This document shows, in pieces, positions 19,168-63,312 of a stretch of 64,000 bases of DNA. The position numbers and the translations under genes were made by a program. The notes beneath the pieces are model-generated. The model was not told the origin of the DNA. It saw only the letters and a program-made list of their open reading frames with translations, and did no database searches. This stretch comes from an uncultured Vampirovibrio sp. Lineage in GTDB: Bacteria; Cyanobacteriota; Vampirovibrionia; Gastranaerophilales; Gastranaerophilaceae. Within the stretch, counting starts at the first letter, position 1, and every line of letters starts with the position of its first letter. The stretch spans positions 72,104 through 136,103 of the forward strand of contig CAJTXT010000005.1 of assembly GCA_910583875.1 (NCBI GenBank), read 5' to 3'.

Positions 19168-19264
19168 AAAGATAAAAGCAGAAAAATTTCATTTTCGGCA
19201 CCTGTGTTTTCGCGATTCCTAAAAACAATGGTGCCAAAAATAAAATTTTTCTGCTTTTATCTTT
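19168..19264 (-). repeat. family-2 repeat
   Basis: Arms match at 33/35 positions. Core 'cacctgtgttttcgcgattcctaaaaacaatggtg'. Ends 4 nt before the stop codon of the 19268 gene. Confidence 0.88.
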
Positions 19265-19267
19265 GAA

Positions 19268-20566: not shown

Positions 20567-20642
20567 TATTTTTCCTTTCTAAAATTATAGGAATGCAATT
20601 GTGTATAAAAATAAAATTAGAATCACGCTCAAAAATAATTAG

Positions 20643-20841
20643 GAAATTATATAGAAATTTACACTAAATCTGCTTAAAAAATAGTAATAATGTCATTCCG
20701 AACTTGTTTGACTACTTTTTCCAAAATCTTTGATTTTGTGAAAAATGTCTGGTTTTCCACGGAATCTTACAATTTGTAAGACCCTGAAACAAGTTCAGGG
20801 TGACAACTTTAGCTATTTTAGTGTAAAGTTGCACATAATTT
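20643..20841. mobile_element. family-1 MITE, full length, carrying a nested 51-nt insertion
   Basis: Ends 'gaaattatatagaaatttacactaaa' and 'tttagtgtaaagttgcacataatttc' are inverted. Two hairpins (ttccg and ccctg variants). Confidence 0.85.
20710..20760 (+). mobile_element. nested 51-nt mini-element (family 3)
   Basis: 'gactactttttccaaaatctttgattttgtgaaaaatgtctggttttccac' splits the hairpin 'ccgaacttgttt|cggaat'. Confidence 0.85.
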
Positions 20842-20892
20842 CAATTTTTCAAGGAATTATAATTTTATATTTATACATTTGGTCATTCCTTT

Positions 20893-40620: not shown

Positions 40621-40755
40621 ATAAATTTACTAATCTTTCTTTTAATTCTAAACTGGTTAGATGCTGAAACAAGTTCAGCATGACGTATTGAGAAAATAAA
40701 GTGATAAATAATTATAAACAACATATCAACTATATACTGTCACCCTGAACTTTTT

Positions 40756-40806
40756 GACTACTTTTTCCGAAATCTATGATTTCGAGAAAAATGTCTGGTT
40801 TTCCAC
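40756..40806 (+). mobile_element. nested 51-nt mini-element (family 3)
   Basis: 'gactactttttccgaaatctatgatttcgagaaaaatgtctggttttccac' lies inside 'ccctgaacttttt|agggtc'. Confidence 0.85.
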
Positions 40807-40866
40807 AGGGTCTTGCCAACTTAACATAACTAATCATTGACTTAATTCTAAATCACCTAGATGCTG

Positions 40867-40888
40867 TGGGAAACCAGACATTTTTCAA
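40867..40888 (-). mobile_element. family-3 fragment
   Basis: 'tgggaaaccagacatttttc' equals the reverse complement of the 3' end of the 51-nt element. It interrupts an 'agatgctg' hairpin arm. Confidence 0.6.
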
Positions 40889-46985: not shown

Positions 46986-47078
46986 ATAAGAATGATAAGA
47001 TTTTTTTAGTTAGAAGGCATTGTTTTCGCGTATGCAGAAAACACAGGCTTCTAACTAAAAAAATCTTATCATTCTTAT
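46986..47078 (+). repeat. family-2 repeat, core variant
   Basis: Perfect 31-bp arms (46986-47016 / 47048-47078). Loop 'gcattgttttcgcgtatgcagaaaacacagg'. Starts at the base after the stop codon. Confidence 0.85.
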
Positions 47079-47137: not shown

Positions 47138-48865
47138 ATGAGAATGTCACAACTTTTTGTACAAACACTAAGAGAATTTCCTTCAGATGCTGAAGTAATG
47201 AGTCATAAATTATTAGTAAGAGCAGGCTACATAAGAAAGCTTGCAAATGGTGTATATAACTATTTACCATTAATGTGGCGAGTATTAAAAAAAGTTGAAA
47301 ATATAATAAGAGAAGAAATGGATGCAGCAGGTGCTCAAGAACTATTAATGCCCTTCGTGCAGCCTGCAGAATTATGGCAAGACTCGGGGCGCTGGGAAGT
47401 ATATGGTAAAGAACTAATGCGTTTAAAAGATAGACACAATCGTGAAATGTGTTTAGCACCAACTCATGAAGAAGTTGTAACCGCTGTAGCAAAAGAAGGT
47501 GTTCGTTCTTATAAACAATTGCCTTTAAATCTATATCACATTCAATTAAAATTTAGAGATGAAATAAGACCTCGTTTCGGTTTATTAAGAGGACGTGAAT
47601 TTATAATGAAAGACGCATACAGCTTTGATGCCGATGAAGAAGGTCTTGATAAATCTTATGAAATTATGGCAAAAGCTTATACTAGAATTTTTGAAAGATG
47701 CGGCTTAGAAACAAAAATGGTTCAATCTGATACAGGTGCTATAGGCGGAAGTGTTTCTCACGAATATATGGTGCTTGTAAATGAAGATACAGAAAACAAC
47801 GCTGGTGAAAATGATGTATTCTATTGCACAAAATGTGGTTATAGCGCAAATTCAAATCATGCTGTTTCTATTTTAAATCCAGCTGAAACAGATGGTAAAT
47901 TCGAAAAAGCAGAAATCATAGATACACCTAACGCACATTCAATTGAAGAACTTGCAAAATTATTAAAGGTTCCTGCAAGCGTAATTTGTAAATGCTTAAT
48001 ATATGTTGTTGACGGTAAATATGTTGCAGCCTTAATTAGAGGTGATAAGACTGTTGAAGAAACAAAATTAATGAACGCTTTTGCCGGAAATGATATTCGT
48101 ATTGCACGAAATGACGAAATTGAAGAAATTATGAAGGCTTCCGGTTTTAACGCAATAGCAGGATTTATTGGGCCAAAAGGATTAAAGAACGTTCAAATAA
48201 TTGCAGATGAAACAGTAAAAGAACTCAAAAACTTTGTTATCGGTATAAATCAGACAGACAAACACTTAGTAGGTGCTAATTGGGGCGTAGATGTTGAATT
48301 ACCTGAAAAGATTGCCGATATCAGATTAGTAGAAAAAAATGATAAATGTGTTGATTGCGGTGCTGAATTAAAAGTCACAAAAGGTATTGAAGTTGGAAAC
48401 ATCTTTAAACTCGGAACAAAATATTCAAAAGCAATGAATGCAACATTTACAGATAAAGACGGTAAAGAAAGACCATTCATAATGGGCTGTTACGGTATTG
48501 GTGTTACAAGAACAGCTGCTGCCGCTGTTGAAAGACACCATGATGAATTTGGTATTAAATGGCCTTTAGCAATTGCACCTTATACAGTTGTTATTGTTCC
48601 AGTAAGCGATCAAGATGAAACTCAAATGAAAGTTGCAGAAGAAATGTACAAAAAACTTTTAGATGCAAAGGTTGAAGTTCTTCTTGATGATAGAAGTGAA
48701 AGAGCTGGTGTTAAATTAAAAGATGCTGATTTAATCGGTATTCCGTTTAGAATTACTGTTGGTAAAACAATTAAAGACGGACTTGTTGAATTTAAAACAC
48801 GTGCTACAAATGAAATGGTAACAATTACTCCGGATGAAGCTGTTGAACGAATTTTAGCATTATAA
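47138..48865 (+). CDS. proS: prolyl-tRNA synthetase (bacterial type, with editing insertion)
   Basis: 575 aa. 'MRMSQLFVQTLRE', 'FRDEIRPRFGLLRGREFIMKDAYSF', 'GCYGIGVTR'. Confidence 0.95.
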   Translation: MRMSQLFVQTLREFPSDAEVMSHKLLVRAGYIRKLANGVYNYLPLMWRVLKKVENIIREEMDAAGAQELLMPFVQPAELWQDSGRWEVYGKELMRLKDRHNREMCLAPTHEEVVTAVAKEGVRSYKQLPLNLYHIQLKFRDEIRPRFGLLRGREFIMKDAYSFDADEEGLDKSYEIMAKAYTRIFERCGLETKMVQSDTGAIGGSVSHEYMVLVNEDTENNAGENDVFYCTKCGYSANSNHAVSILNPAETDGKFEKAEIIDTPNAHSIEELAKLLKVPASVICKCLIYVVDGKYVAALIRGDKTVEETKLMNAFAGNDIRIARNDEIEEIMKASGFNAIAGFIGPKGLKNVQIIADETVKELKNFVIGINQTDKHLVGANWGVDVELPEKIADIRLVEKNDKCVDCGAELKVTKGIEVGNIFKLGTKYSKAMNATFTDKDGKERPFIMGCYGIGVTRTAAAAVERHHDEFGIKWPLAIAPYTVVIVPVSDQDETQMKVAEEMYKKLLDAKVEVLLDDRSERAGVKLKDADLIGIPFRITVGKTIKDGLVEFKTRATNEMVTITPDEAVERILAL

Positions 48866-48892
48866 AAAGAAAAAACAGAAAATATATACAAT

Positions 48893-49012
48893 TTTACACT
48901 AAAATTACTGAATTTGTCACCCTGAACTTGTTTCAGGGTCTTACAAATGGTAAGATTCCGAAACAAGTTCGGAATGACATTATGACTATCTTTTGAGTCA
49001 ATTTAGTGTAAA
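48893..49012. mobile_element. family-1 MITE, compact complete copy (reference copy)
   Basis: 'tttacactaaa...GTCACCCTGAACTTGTTTCAGGGTCTTACaaatgGTAAGATTCCGAAACAAGTTCGGAATGAC...tttagtgtaaa'. Confidence 0.88.
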
Positions 49013-49134
49013 TTTATATATAATTCCTATTTTTTATTTTTGCTATTTATTCTTATCATTTCTTCATAAAATCCAATTTTTTAACAAAATTTTTCCTTTA
49101 ATTTCGTTCATGCAAAAAGTAGAAGGTATATATT

Positions 49135-50163
49135 TTGATTACAATTTCCCCTGCTTTACATACAAAAACATATAACATATATAATAATCCGGCATCCGGA
49201 TTATCTAAACCAATGCAAAGTTTTAAAGGAAATGATACATCAGATATAGTTTCGCAAGGGGATAAAGCATTAAACGAAAATAATTTTTCTAAAGCTTTAG
49301 AAGCTTATCAACAAGCAAACAAACTAAACCCTGATGATATTAATATTTATAGAAAAATGGCAAAAGCAAATTTTGGTTTAAAAGATTATGCTTCTGCCGA
49401 AAACAATTTTTCCGTTTATTTAGAGAAAAAACCGGAAGATGTTGATTGCTTAATTGAATTAGGTGAAACACAAAGACAAGCAGGATTTTATCAAAAAGCC
49501 TTAAGTAATTTTGAAAAAGCACATAATATAGATAAATCTAATGATTTAGCTCAAAGAAGCATTTTAGAAACTAAGAATAATATTTTAGCAATATATTCAC
49601 CGGAACGAGCAAAAGTAGAAAAAATGGCTTATGCTTCAAATAATTTAAGAGAAGCATTAAATATGACTGTACAATATTTAACACCTGCATTTATGAAAGA
49701 TATGCAAGATGTGTCTATTTCTTTTGGCGAAACAGCACAAATGGGCGGAACTTCTAATATTGCTCAGTATGAAAATTATAAAAATGCTATTACTATATCA
49801 AATTCATATATCTATGCTGCACCGCAAGTTATTGCAGCATATTTAACACACGAATCAATTCACGCAAAAGATAAAGATCCATATACATCAATACGCGAAG
49901 AACAAGATGCCTATGAAGTTGCAACAAAGTTTTGGATTAATCACTCAAATGGAGTAAGCGATCCGGAAATGGATTATGCAAAAGATTTATACTTAAAATC
50001 TCCGGCAGCATTAAGTTCAAGAGTTGAAGAAATATACACACTACGAGACCCTTCAATAGCAAAAACATCTCCAAATCATCCACCTGAGAAGAAATTTCAT
50101 TTTAATACCTCAAAGAAAAAAGCTGCTTCACAATCTATAAAAGAATATAATGTTATTGCATAA
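49135..50163 (+). CDS. TPR-repeat protein with a C-terminal HExxH motif and an F-x-G leader
   Basis: TTG start behind GAAGG. TPR stretch 'ALEAYQQANKLNPDD...'. 'YLTHESIHAKD' followed by 'EEQDAYE'. Leader '...MQSFKGND'. Confidence 0.55.
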   Translation: MITISPALHTKTYNIYNNPASGLSKPMQSFKGNDTSDIVSQGDKALNENNFSKALEAYQQANKLNPDDINIYRKMAKANFGLKDYASAENNFSVYLEKKPEDVDCLIELGETQRQAGFYQKALSNFEKAHNIDKSNDLAQRSILETKNNILAIYSPERAKVEKMAYASNNLREALNMTVQYLTPAFMKDMQDVSISFGETAQMGGTSNIAQYENYKNAITISNSYIYAAPQVIAAYLTHESIHAKDKDPYTSIREEQDAYEVATKFWINHSNGVSDPEMDYAKDLYLKSPAALSSRVEEIYTLRDPSIAKTSPNHPPEKKFHFNTSKKKAASQSIKEYNVIA

Positions 50164-53362: not shown

Positions 53363-53369
53363 AATTTGG

Positions 53370-53568
53370 GAATTATATAGAAATTTACAATAAACATGTT
53401 CAGAATATAGTCATAATGTCATTCCGAACTTGTTTCGGAATCTTACCAATTGTAAGACTCTGTGGGGAACTAGGCATTTTTCACAAAATCACAGATTTTA
53501 GAAAAAGTTGTCAAACAAGTTTATGGTAACGACTTCAACTTTTTTAGTGTAAAGTTATACATAATTTC
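53370..53568. mobile_element. family-1 MITE, full length, carrying a nested insertion
   Basis: Same ends as the 20643 copy ('ggaattatatagaaatttaca' and 'tttagtgtaaagttatacataatttc'). Confidence 0.85.
53462..53512 (-). mobile_element. nested 51-nt mini-element (family 3)
   Basis: 'gtggggaactaggcatttttcacaaaatcacagattttagaaaaagttgtc' interrupts 'gtaagactctg|aaacaagtt'. Confidence 0.8.
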
Positions 53569-53701
53569 TTAAATTTTTTTTAAAATTTCAAAAAAATGCG
53601 CAAAAAATTTTTTGTTCATGTTTTGTATTAACGGCTAGTTGATAAAAACACGAAAATAGTATATAATTAATAACCCATGAGAATGTAAAGGAGAGAAGTA
53701 A

Positions 53702-60660: not shown

Positions 60661-60993
60661 TTAATTATCTTTTAATGCATCTATTATCGTAAGTATAATT
60701 TTTCTTTTCTCAAAAGATAAATCTTTGAATTTTTCGCATATTAAGAATTGAAGTTCTTTATCATCAATGTTTAAAGACTCATCATCAAATAAAAATAATC
60801 TTGCGACAGGAAGATTTAAAGTTTCTACTACTTTGACAAAAACAGGATATGAAGGGAAAGTATAACCTGTTTCAATACCTGATAATGTTTGGGGAGTAAT
60901 GCCTGCTTTATCCGCAAAATCAATTTGGCTTAACCCTAACTTATTTCTATAATATTTAACTCTTTTTCCAAAGTCTTTTTTAAAATCCATCAT
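60661..60993 (-). CDS. XRE-family HTH protein, paralogue 2
   Basis: 'FGKRVKYYRNKLGLSQIDFADKAGITPQTLSGIETG'. Confidence 0.75.
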   Translation of the reverse strand: MMDFKKDFGKRVKYYRNKLGLSQIDFADKAGITPQTLSGIETGYTFPSYPVFVKVVETLNLPVARLFLFDDESLNIDDKELQFLICEKFKDLSFEKRKIILTIIDALKDN

Positions 60994-61075: not shown

Positions 61076-61218
61076 ATACTACACTTAAAAATTTATTGTC
61101 ACCCTGAATTTATTTCAGGGTCTTACCAGCTTATTAGTAATTTTTTAATTCTTTATCCATTATAAATCTTTAGTATTCATTTCTTATTGGTAAGATGCTG
61201 AAACAAGTTCAGCATGAC
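61076..61218. mobile_element. family-1 MITE with a long spacer
   Basis: Hairpins 61098-61126 (ccctg variant) and 61189-61218 (tgctg variant). Spacer of about 62 nt. Confidence 0.8.
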
Positions 61219-61290: not shown

Positions 61291-61629
61291 ATGACAAAAA
61301 GTACTCTTAAAAAAGAATTAGGTTCAAAATTTCAATCTATGAGGAAACGCCTAGGTTTATCACAAGAAAAACTAGCAGAGTTAATAGGTGTATCAACCAA
61401 CACCATATCAAAGATTGAAACAGGAAATAGATTCCCATCTTGTAAAACATTCGAAAATATAGCTAGTGCTTTAGAAATAAATTTATCAGAGTTATTTGAT
61501 TTCACAAATAAAAACATTCAACCAGATGTAACCAAATCTTTAATTCTTGAATTAAAAGAATGCGATATTGAAACACAAAAAGTTATTCTAGCTTTTACAA
61601 GATTTTATAAAAAAGAACATCACAAATAA
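61291..61629 (+). CDS. XRE-family HTH protein, paralogue 3
   Basis: 'LGSKFQSMRKRLGLSQEKLAELIGVSTNTISKIETG'. Confidence 0.75.
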   Translation: MTKSTLKKELGSKFQSMRKRLGLSQEKLAELIGVSTNTISKIETGNRFPSCKTFENIASALEINLSELFDFTNKNIQPDVTKSLILELKECDIETQKVILAFTRFYKKEHHK

Positions 61630-61636
61630 TTTTTGA

Positions 61637-61846
61637 GAGTTATATAAAATTTACACAGAATCTACTTAAAATACAGCAATAATGTCATGCTGAACTTGTT
61701 TCAGCATCTTACCAATAAGGAATTGAAACAAAAGAATACAATATATAAGAATAAAAAGCATAATTATAAGCTGGTAAGACCCTGAAACAAGTTCAGGGTG
61801 ACAACTTTAGATAGTTCAATTTATAGTTGTATATAGCCCATAATTT
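61637..61846. mobile_element. family-1 MITE with a long spacer, inverted relative to the 61076 copy
   Basis: Hairpin order is reversed (tgctg, then ccctg). The spacer ends 'caataagg...ataagctg' match the reverse complement of the 61127-61188 spacer. Confidence 0.8.
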
Positions 61847-62292: not shown

Positions 62293-62425
62293 GTCACCCT
62301 GAATTTATTTGACTACTTTTTCCGAAATCTATGATTTCGAGAAAAATGTCTGGTTTTCCACAGGGTCTTACCAGCTAAAATATTATTTTCAAATTGGTAA
62401 GATGCTGAAAAAAGTTCAGCATGAC
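62293..62425. mobile_element. family-1 MITE carrying a nested insertion
   Basis: 'gtcaccctgaatttattt|...|agggtcttac' plus 'ggtaagatgctgaaaaaagttcagcatgac'. Confidence 0.8.
62311..62361 (+). mobile_element. nested 51-nt mini-element (family 3)
   Basis: Identical to the 40756 copy by eye. Confidence 0.85.
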
Positions 62426-63065: not shown

Positions 63066-63093
63066 AAGACCGTCAAAATGGCGGTCTTTTTTT
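63066..63093 (+). terminator. rho-independent terminator
   Basis: Stem aagaccg/cggtctt, 9-nt loop, T-run. Confidence 0.6.
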
Positions 63094-63210
63094 GCGGAAT
63101 AAGAAAAATGCACAAGGGGTATTTGTTTCGAAGTCCATTGATTTTAGGAACCGCGAAATTACAGGACGAGAAGCAAATACCCCTTGTGCATTTTTCTTAT
63201 TCCGCAAAAA
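63089..63210 (+). repeat. family-2 repeat
   Basis: Perfect 37-bp outer arms 'tttttgcggaataagaaaaatgcacaaggggtatttg'. Core 'gtccattgattttaggaaccgcgaaattacaggac'. Confidence 0.88.
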
Positions 63211-63312
63211 CAAACAACAAAACAGTAAAAGATTTAATTTTTCGTCCTGTGATTTCGCGGTTCCTAAAATCAATGGACTTCAAAATTAAATCTTTTACTG
63301 TTTTGTTGTTTG
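63211..63312 (-). repeat. family-2 repeat, abutting the previous copy in opposite orientation
   Basis: Perfect 31-bp arms 'caaacaacaaaacagtaaaagatttaatttt'. Core 'gtcctgtgatttcgcggttcctaaaatcaatggac'. Confidence 0.88.

Follow-up and report, generated by a model that had tools for sequence, protein, structure and literature searches.

The hairpin repeats dispersed through the 64,000-nt stretch of DNA analysed here (the window, C5:72104-136103 within a genome of 2.04 Mb and 29.5% G+C) are, with a probability that we put at about 85%, recognition sites of an SsnA-type GIY-YIG nuclease, similar to the Ssn-related motifs (SRMs) and the NTS repeat of Neisseria and part of the "CGTC/TGTC-tagged REP" superfamily. 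The feature is real and belongs to the described Ssn/NTS-SRM system, and with this identity the covariation of the hairpin stems is explained rather than mysterious. A conspicuous family of repeats from an uncultured gut lineage is now tied to a system with an identified enzyme. New with respect to published work are a conserved cross-phylum SRM class that escapes the published search string, the definition of the stem positions that vary by compensation, SRM doublets that ride in a MITE with terminal inverted repeats (TIRs) and target-site duplications, SRM loops that look like hot spots for small insertions, and the presence of at least 354 units in one Gastranaerophilales species.

The repeat unit has the consensus T-GTCA-[4 nt]-GAA-CTTGT-TTC-[4 nt']-TCTTAC, and a single unit folds into an 8-bp stem with a 5-nt loop (-6.5 to -7.9 kcal/mol). 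All nine loci listed in the initial annotation of this DNA hold units, and the 11-nt core GAACTTGTTTC has 15 occurrences in the window where 1.95 would be expected. The family is also abundant genome-wide, as had been supposed: a search with fixed positions, up to 4 substitutions and the variable stem left free detected 310 short units (1 in the shuffled control), and with 44 "long" units of 79 nt, which carry a 50-nt insert in the loop, the genome contains at least 354 units, or about one per 6 kb. The variable part of the stem is 4 nt, not 5 nt as first described, the fifth pair being a constant G-C. Three compensated variants, the same three noticed at the outset, dominate among the 310 short units, i.e., TGCT/AGCA (121), CCCT/AGGG (86) and TTCC/GGAA (61), and a few units carry the minor variants TCCT, TTCT or CTCT. 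The stem had been called always perfectly complementary; this is true of 281 of the 310 short units, but 29 have at least one mismatch, and in the window the unit at 53452-53530 is degenerate.

Only two of the 310 units are located inside an ORF although coding sequence makes up 87% of the genome. Units are over-represented in convergent intergenic regions (59 of 268 occupied vs 69 of 1066 tandem ones), and the two unit orientations are balanced (140 vs 139). In a loop-anchored profile T-GTCA is 92-100% conserved (GTCA 99-100%), the T-C-T after the stem 97-99% and the C after the palindrome 97%, and there is no conservation upstream of T-GTCA. Substitutions per position amount to 0.5% in GTCA and in the stem-top GAA, 1% in TTC, approximately 3% at the C after the stem, 5.8% in the loop and 20% in the distal TAC; within the motif core conservation is lowest in the loop, and only the distal TAC tail is more variable. 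The units and elements of the window are as follows.

48877..49028, no strand: MITE of 152 nt with a tail-to-tail SRM doublet; TIRs at 48877-48903 and 49002-49028.
48916..48944, plus strand: SRM unit CCCT/AGGG, an exact match to the consensus GTCACCCTGAACTTGTTTCAGGGTCTTAC.
48950..48978, minus strand: SRM unit TTCC/GGAA, GTCATTCCGAACTTGTTTCGGAATCTTAC, an exact consensus match.
12015..12084, no strand: partial MITE arm (12015-12040) and one TGCT unit (12056-12084, minus) with its tail replaced by TGAC.
18197..18336, no strand: TGCT/TGCT homodimer, units at 18197-18225 (plus) and 18268-18296 (minus), spacer 42 nt, TIR remnant at 18315-18336.
20642..20843, no strand: MITE copy of 202 nt; long-form TTCC unit at 20692-20770 (plus) with the 50-nt loop insert, CCCT unit at 20776-20804 (minus).
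40656..40886, no strand: three-part cluster of a TGCT unit (40656-40684, minus), a long-form CCCT unit (40739-40817, plus) and a long-form fragment (40858-40886).
53368..53569, no strand: MITE copy of 202 nt; TTCC unit at 53418-53446 (plus), degenerate long-form CCAT/AGAG unit at 53452-53530 (minus).
61098..61218, no strand: CCCT/TGCT heterodimer with no outer TIR, units at 61098-61126 (plus) and 61190-61218 (minus), spacer 63 nt.
61635..61835, no strand: TGCT/CCCT heterodimer in degenerate MITE arms, units at 61684-61712 (plus) and 61774-61802 (minus), spacer 61 nt, TIR-like sequence at 61635-61658.
62293..62425, no strand: long-form CCCT unit (62293-62371, plus) facing a TGCT unit (62397-62425, minus).

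The two units of the 152-nt element at 48877-49028 face each other, 5 nt apart, and the element is located between proS (47138-48865) and a TPR gene (49135-50163). Eight congeneric genomes have no element in the orthologous proS-TPR intergenic region, where their sequences are too diverged for defining insertion junctions. No target duplication is visible at this decayed copy; the copy at 53368..53569 is flanked by TAAAATTT and TAAATTTT, which are identical at 7 of 8 positions. Two small XRE-type HTH genes (PF01381), at 60661-60993 (minus) and 61291-61629 (plus), lie within 2 kb together with three SRM doublets, and the second gene has doublets on both sides, an arrangement that can be compared with the "motif-gene-motif" layout in Neisseria.

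The genome contains 133 dimers, of which 89 are tail-to-tail doublets (CTTAC inward, tags outward) and 44 are head-to-head pairs (tags inward). The spacers of the tail-to-tail doublets have modes at 5, 24, 41-45 and 57 nt. The remark that one element usually carries two different stem variants was borne out, since 56 of the 89 tail-to-tail doublets are heterodimers; among the 33 homodimers, 29 are TGCT-TGCT. More than 250 units are found outside the TIR-bounded elements, with no TIRs and no visible duplication (e.g., TGCT-TGCT doublets with 41-45-nt spacers), and a search of the genome for paralogous empty sites of such TIR-less doublets gave none.

The hairpin was also sought in other genomes, as the initial annotation had advised, by an exact-pattern scan with the 29-nt motif in one genome per species. 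More than 110 loci in many phyla were detected with the same doublet design and stem variants, among them loci in Gastranaerophilales, Sphingomonadales (many per genome), Treponema, Balneolaceae, Patescibacteria, Francisella, Nitrospiraceae, KSB1 and other taxa. The compensated variants in other genomes include TCCT, TCCC, TTCT and TGCC. Some Sphingomonadales doublets (e.g., L040, L045, L049 and L077) have an additional 8-10 nt or so of loosely complementary flanks outside GTCA...TGAC (ccacYtcc ... ggRgtgg), and the repeated element there is therefore longer than two units.

When all ORFs at the motif loci were clustered, one small protein recurred beside the units, a GIY-YIG protein of about 95 aa (PF01541, E = 2.4e-15). 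An autonomous partner with the same ends as the MITE, for which the initial annotation had advised a search, was not found in this genome or, with a near-exact TIR pattern, in the genome collection; the partner linked to the hairpin is this 95-aa GIY-YIG gene. Inverted units bracket the gene exactly at several loci, and at one of them (L098) the TAA stop codon lies within the GGTAAGA of the right unit. A reverse search that started from the GIY-YIG protein yielded 80 homologue loci in about ten phyla, with units on both sides of the gene in 41 (51%) and at least one unit in 63. The hairpin-GIY-YIG-hairpin cassette has a median length of 378 bp, units are 17-fold denser at distances of up to 200 nt from the gene across the 80 loci, and 28 of the 41 cassettes have unlike stem variants at their two ends. 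At one cassette locus (L111) no empty site was found; its neighbours are other repeats and a sequence that recurs in many genomes, possibly a tRNA gene. Comparison by eye of the doublet spacers with the ends of ssnA genes gave no convincing similarity.

This genome carries a single ssnA-type gene, located outside the window at C4:79074-79361 and encoding 95 aa; its nuclease is predicted to cut the units of this genome. In a PDB search the protein gave weak matches only, to the UPF0213 proteins 1ZG2 (E = 2e-4) and 1YWL (E = 1.5e-3). The gene is not bracketed by units; one long-form unit is found 44 nt downstream in the other orientation. A remnant, AATTTATAATG, is present where relatives have AATTGGTAAGATG, and both flanking hairpins have been lost. 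The genome combines the highest motif count observed with a gene that lacks flanking hairpins, which recalls single-copy "domesticated" RAYTs. Among 41 related genomes, units are present in 14 of 16 with a strong homologue vs 7 of 25 without one (Fisher p = 3e-4), and the 7 genomes of the latter kind still have a few units. Strict unit matches number 279 in this genome and at most 38 in each of 40 relatives, most congeners having none, and hence there was a sharp, roughly 10-fold expansion in this one species. Such a burst in one species with none in its congeners offers a natural case for asking if SsnA amplifies its motifs. ComEC and DprA are encoded in the genome, which is no proof of competence, as both are nearly universal.

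The covariation of the stems reported in the initial annotation was confirmed with 123 distinct units around the 80 GIY-YIG loci, a set not selected for pairing. Paired cells amount to 97.8% vs 87.5 +/- 0.6% in shuffles, and double-sided changes to 105 vs 28.6 +/- 3.8. Variation is confined to three of the eight pairs, namely pair 2 (T-A 95, C-G 23), pair 3 (C-G 58, G-C 43, T-A 14) and pair 5 (T-A 97, C-G 21). Cells of the G-T type number 5 of 984, and with this near-absence a DNA hairpin fits better than RNA. The covariation had been ascribed either to selection on a hairpin or to templated copying of it. The first part stands, the selected structure being most likely an ssDNA hairpin, but copying between arms found no support: ongoing arm-to-arm correction within the genome was rejected because the variable pairs break at 3.9%, an ordinary decay rate. 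This non-Watson-Crick share of the variable pairs is above the rate of the invariant parts (0.5-1%) and below that of the loop (5.8%). The stem variants are old lineages common to many phyla that were recently amplified here.

Since most cassettes combine unlike variants, a single enzyme has to work with more than one of them. This genome has three abundant variants and a single gene, and it is simplest to suppose that the enzyme requires pairing at the three variable positions without reading their base identity. Against this tolerance, which is our inference, stands the SsnA of N. meningitidis, which is inactive after a structure-preserving change of the palindrome.

SsnA of N. meningitidis is a single-domain GIY-YIG protein of 94 aa (cd10448) with catalytic residues Y6, Y17 and E64; its substrate is the Neisseria hairpin repeat NTS (CGTCATTCCCGCGMAVGCGGGAATCYRG), bound as ssDNA only and in one orientation only, with the cut a few nt upstream, and the protein does not bind RNA (Chenal et al., Nat Commun 2025, PMC11893778). 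SRMs occur in hundreds of copies and are present on both sides of the ssn genes in 42% of homologues, and in N. meningitidis Ssn cleavage restricts incoming transforming DNA (PMC11893778). By mutagenesis of NTS, the GTC upstream of the palindrome was needed for cleavage and the C after the palindrome was crucial for binding; the loop was dispensable and its extension tolerated in vitro, and changing the palindrome with the structure kept abolished activity (PMC11893778).

The system described here resembles this one in several respects. The protein of this genome is a single-domain GIY-YIG protein of nearly the same size (95 vs 94 aa) with Y8, Y19 and E66 in identical spacing, and its hairpin is oriented, with a 5' (C/T)GTCA tag and a C directly after the palindrome. 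The NTS motif reads CGTCATTCC...GGAATC and the TTCC unit GTCATTCC...GGAATC, so that GTCATTCC...GGAATC is identical letter for letter in both. There are hundreds of intergenic copies, the identity of the loop is unimportant, and the gene is bracketed by inverted motifs at a comparable frequency (42% published, 51% here, 41 of 80). The conservation hierarchy of the units (GTCA and the post-palindrome C high, loop low) matches the published mutagenesis, and the loop extensions tolerated by SsnA fit the finding that 35 of 44 long-form units keep complementary stems across the 50-nt insert.

There are also differences. The upper stem is GAA/TTC and the loop CTTGT; three stem pairs vary by compensation, with several variants alongside one gene; the gene of this genome has no flanking motifs; some doublets reside in a MITE with TIRs and target-site duplications; and the host is a gut member of the Gastranaerophilales, in which the activity is predicted by likeness. 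The published SRM string, HGTCWYN(0-2)YYVSBRHN(0-5)WNVSBRGN(0-2)RNCYNB, which is a search aid and not a definition, matched none of the 310 units and had one match in the whole genome. It misses this class because the stem top is GAA/TTC and not G+C-rich, and published SRM counts are consequently underestimates. This mismatch, like the unbracketed gene of this genome and the 7 related genomes with units but no strong homologue, speaks against the proposed identity. A literature query with the motif sequence found no paper.

The units also agree with the CGTC-tagged REPs, in which the tag is often TGTC, stems of 8-9 bp start with A-T, loops have 4-5 nt, tails are short and unpaired, homo- and heterodimers occur, and dRS3 of Neisseria is included (Di Nocera, De Gregorio, Rocco, BMC Genomics 2013, PMC3733652). 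Here the tag is TGTC, the 8-bp stem starts with A-T (the second pair being T-A in two variants and C-G in CCCT), the loop has 5 nt, the tail is TCTTAC(CA), and the 133 dimers frequently include heterodimers with unlike stems. The elements of that survey were mostly from Alphaproteobacteria, with no dedicated enzyme then linked to them (PMC3733652). Their dimers were mainly head-to-head, whereas here 89 doublets have outward and 44 have inward tags.

By analogy with characterised systems the units likely function as cleavage signals on ssDNA, and we propose the following mechanism. The SRM would be an oriented ssDNA hairpin composed of the tag T-GTC-A, the 8-bp stem, the 5-nt loop and T-C-T. 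When the DNA becomes single-stranded, as in transforming DNA or in replication and repair intermediates, the hairpin would fold, and SsnA would bind it in one orientation and cut a few nt upstream of the GTCA tag, as characterised homologues do. The stem would have to pair, five of the eight pairs and the flanks being read by sequence. The other three pairs are seemingly read as helix only, and compensated variants could thus coexist and serve the same enzyme. Stem pairs that are probably read by shape, as the compensated variants indicate, may be useful for engineering Ssn ssDNA tools. A tail-to-tail doublet would provide one cleavable site per strand, and cleavage would then be independent of which strand turns single-stranded. 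The doublet within the 152-nt MITE with TIRs and an 8-bp target-site duplication would be one route by which copies spread.

A further reading, which we consider doubtful, goes beyond cleavage: the doublets and the 378-bp SRM-ssnA-SRM cassette would be mobile elements in the manner of REPINs and RAYTs, with the nuclease of about 95 aa as the sole enzyme. The discrete spacer classes of the doublets, the presence or absence of an element at an orthologous site, the co-occurrence of gene and motif, and the near-identical motif across phyla are compatible with nuclease-driven mobility and do not prove it. The likeness to REPINs and RAYTs (Bertels and Rainey 2011; Nunvar et al. 2010) consists of a gene that is present once between inverted hairpins, singlets and doublets in the hundreds that lack the gene, and a hairpin recognised as ssDNA; the differences are the enzyme (GIY-YIG hydrolase vs HUH Y1 transposase) and the tag (TGTC vs GTAG). 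If this reading were true, a nuclease class that is absent from the recognised transposases would be the basis of a replicator, the roughly 10-fold burst (279 vs at most 38 in 40 relatives) would be a recent SsnA-driven amplification, and the compensated stem variants would serve as "ends" that are recognised by shape and can replace one another.

MITEs bounded by TIRs and target duplications are well known from bacteria, e.g., Correia/NEMIS of Neisseria, and the repeats had initially been taken as a MITE family. This is correct for about 16 full copies of 152 or 201-202 nt, but more than 250 units lie outside them and the hairpin occurs in many phyla. The terminal inverted repeats, described at first as about 26 nt, are real and 27 nt in length (GGAAATTATATAGAAATTTACACTAAA), and are confined to these full elements. 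Fifteen intact TIR pairs were found, 13 of them bounding elements of 152 or 201-202 nt and 2 bounding larger, disrupted ones (278 and 309 nt); the 201-202-nt length corresponds to one unit with the 50-nt loop insert, and the centre is a TTCC + CCCT doublet in all 15. The target-site duplications are 8 bp, AT-rich and perfect in six cases, with a mean identity of 6.07 of 8 vs 4.25 +/- 0.32 in shuffled pairings. The copies are 90-95% alike, which indicates a recent burst, and the 152-nt element folded as ssDNA reaches -30 kcal/mol (z = -7.6). The same MITE with perfect duplications is found in one other MAG, where the doublet is CCCT + TGCT. Thus the intergenic 152/202-nt elements resemble the Correia/NEMIS type in their TIRs, duplications and long hairpin fold, and differ in that there are only about 16 full copies and an SRM doublet occupies the centre.

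From these elements one could argue that a DDE-type transposase moves all copies as one classical MITE family, the hairpins being mere internal structure. We regard this as very unlikely, since the majority of units are in doublets or singlets without TIRs or duplications, and in many phyla the hairpin is found without these TIRs and beside the GIY-YIG gene. Moreover, an autonomous IS with the 27-nt TIRs was not found in this genome or among the TIR matches of the related MAG, which were always the MITE with its doublet; a near-exact TIR pattern run against the genome collection gave 9 matches, 8 in one relative, none of them such an IS, and a single one in a Seonamhaeicola MAG. The TIRs do not flank the ssnA cassettes. 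The classical MITE is therefore refuted as a full explanation and holds for the TIR-bounded subset. This MITE is only one carrier of the SRM doublet, which hitch-hikes in it, and a doublet in a conventional MITE is a concrete route of SRM spread.

A role of the hairpins at the RNA level, as terminators, sRNAs or processing sites, is suggested by their stability, their intergenic location and their enrichment at 3' ends between convergent genes; it is nevertheless highly improbable. Their orientations are equally frequent, no T-run follows the hairpin, G-U-type pairs are nearly absent, and the characterised SsnA does not bind RNA (PMC11893778). In an Rfam scan the hairpins gave no match at the gathering score and only sub-threshold miRNA-like noise at relaxed thresholds, the sole gathering-score match in the window being a tRNA.

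We give as little credence to the units as double-stranded regulator binding sites or nucleoid-organising palindromes. GAAC-N4-TTTC has what we take to be a loose likeness to LexA-type boxes, but the compensatory changes mean that a strand pairs with itself rather than being read as a duplex sequence, conservation of the flanks is asymmetric, and the associated gene encodes a nuclease and not a regulator. Mobilisation of a REP/REPIN family by a RAYT (HUH Y1 transposase) can be practically dismissed, for in spite of the similar architecture (hundreds of intergenic hairpins, inverted doublets and, in relatives, a hairpin-flanked single-copy gene) PF01797 (Y1_Tnp) was absent in a six-frame search of the genome that matched in control genomes, the tag is TGTC rather than GTAG, and the hairpin-flanked gene is of the GIY-YIG type.

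Two further observations concern inserts and neighbouring repeats. The insert of about 50 nt in the long units, GACTACTTTTTCCRAAATCTWTGATTTYGWGAAAAATGTCTGGTTTYCCA, is located at a fixed point of the SRM loop (GAACTTGTTT^...^C) in 44 copies genome-wide, four of which are in the window (20710-20760, 40757-40806, 53462-53511 and 62311-62360); TGCT, CCCT and TTCC units alike can carry it, and within the MITE it may be in the one unit or the other, so that it seemingly was inserted independently. In the related MAG CASFGU01 (L219:5840-6061 and L215:7386-7680) a nested insert of about 85 nt is present in the loop of a MITE-borne SRM; it differs from the 50-nt insert and itself holds an SRM unit. SRM loops thus look like general hot spots for small insertions. 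The window also holds another repeat family, unrelated to the first, with a conserved core, CATTGTTTTTAGGAATCGCGAAAACACAGG, within long, locus-specific complementary arms, with core copies at 12272-12301, 18997-19026, 47018-47047 and 63136-63165 and long palindromes around the cores at 12213-12359, 18958-19064, 19165-19267 and 63084-63285.
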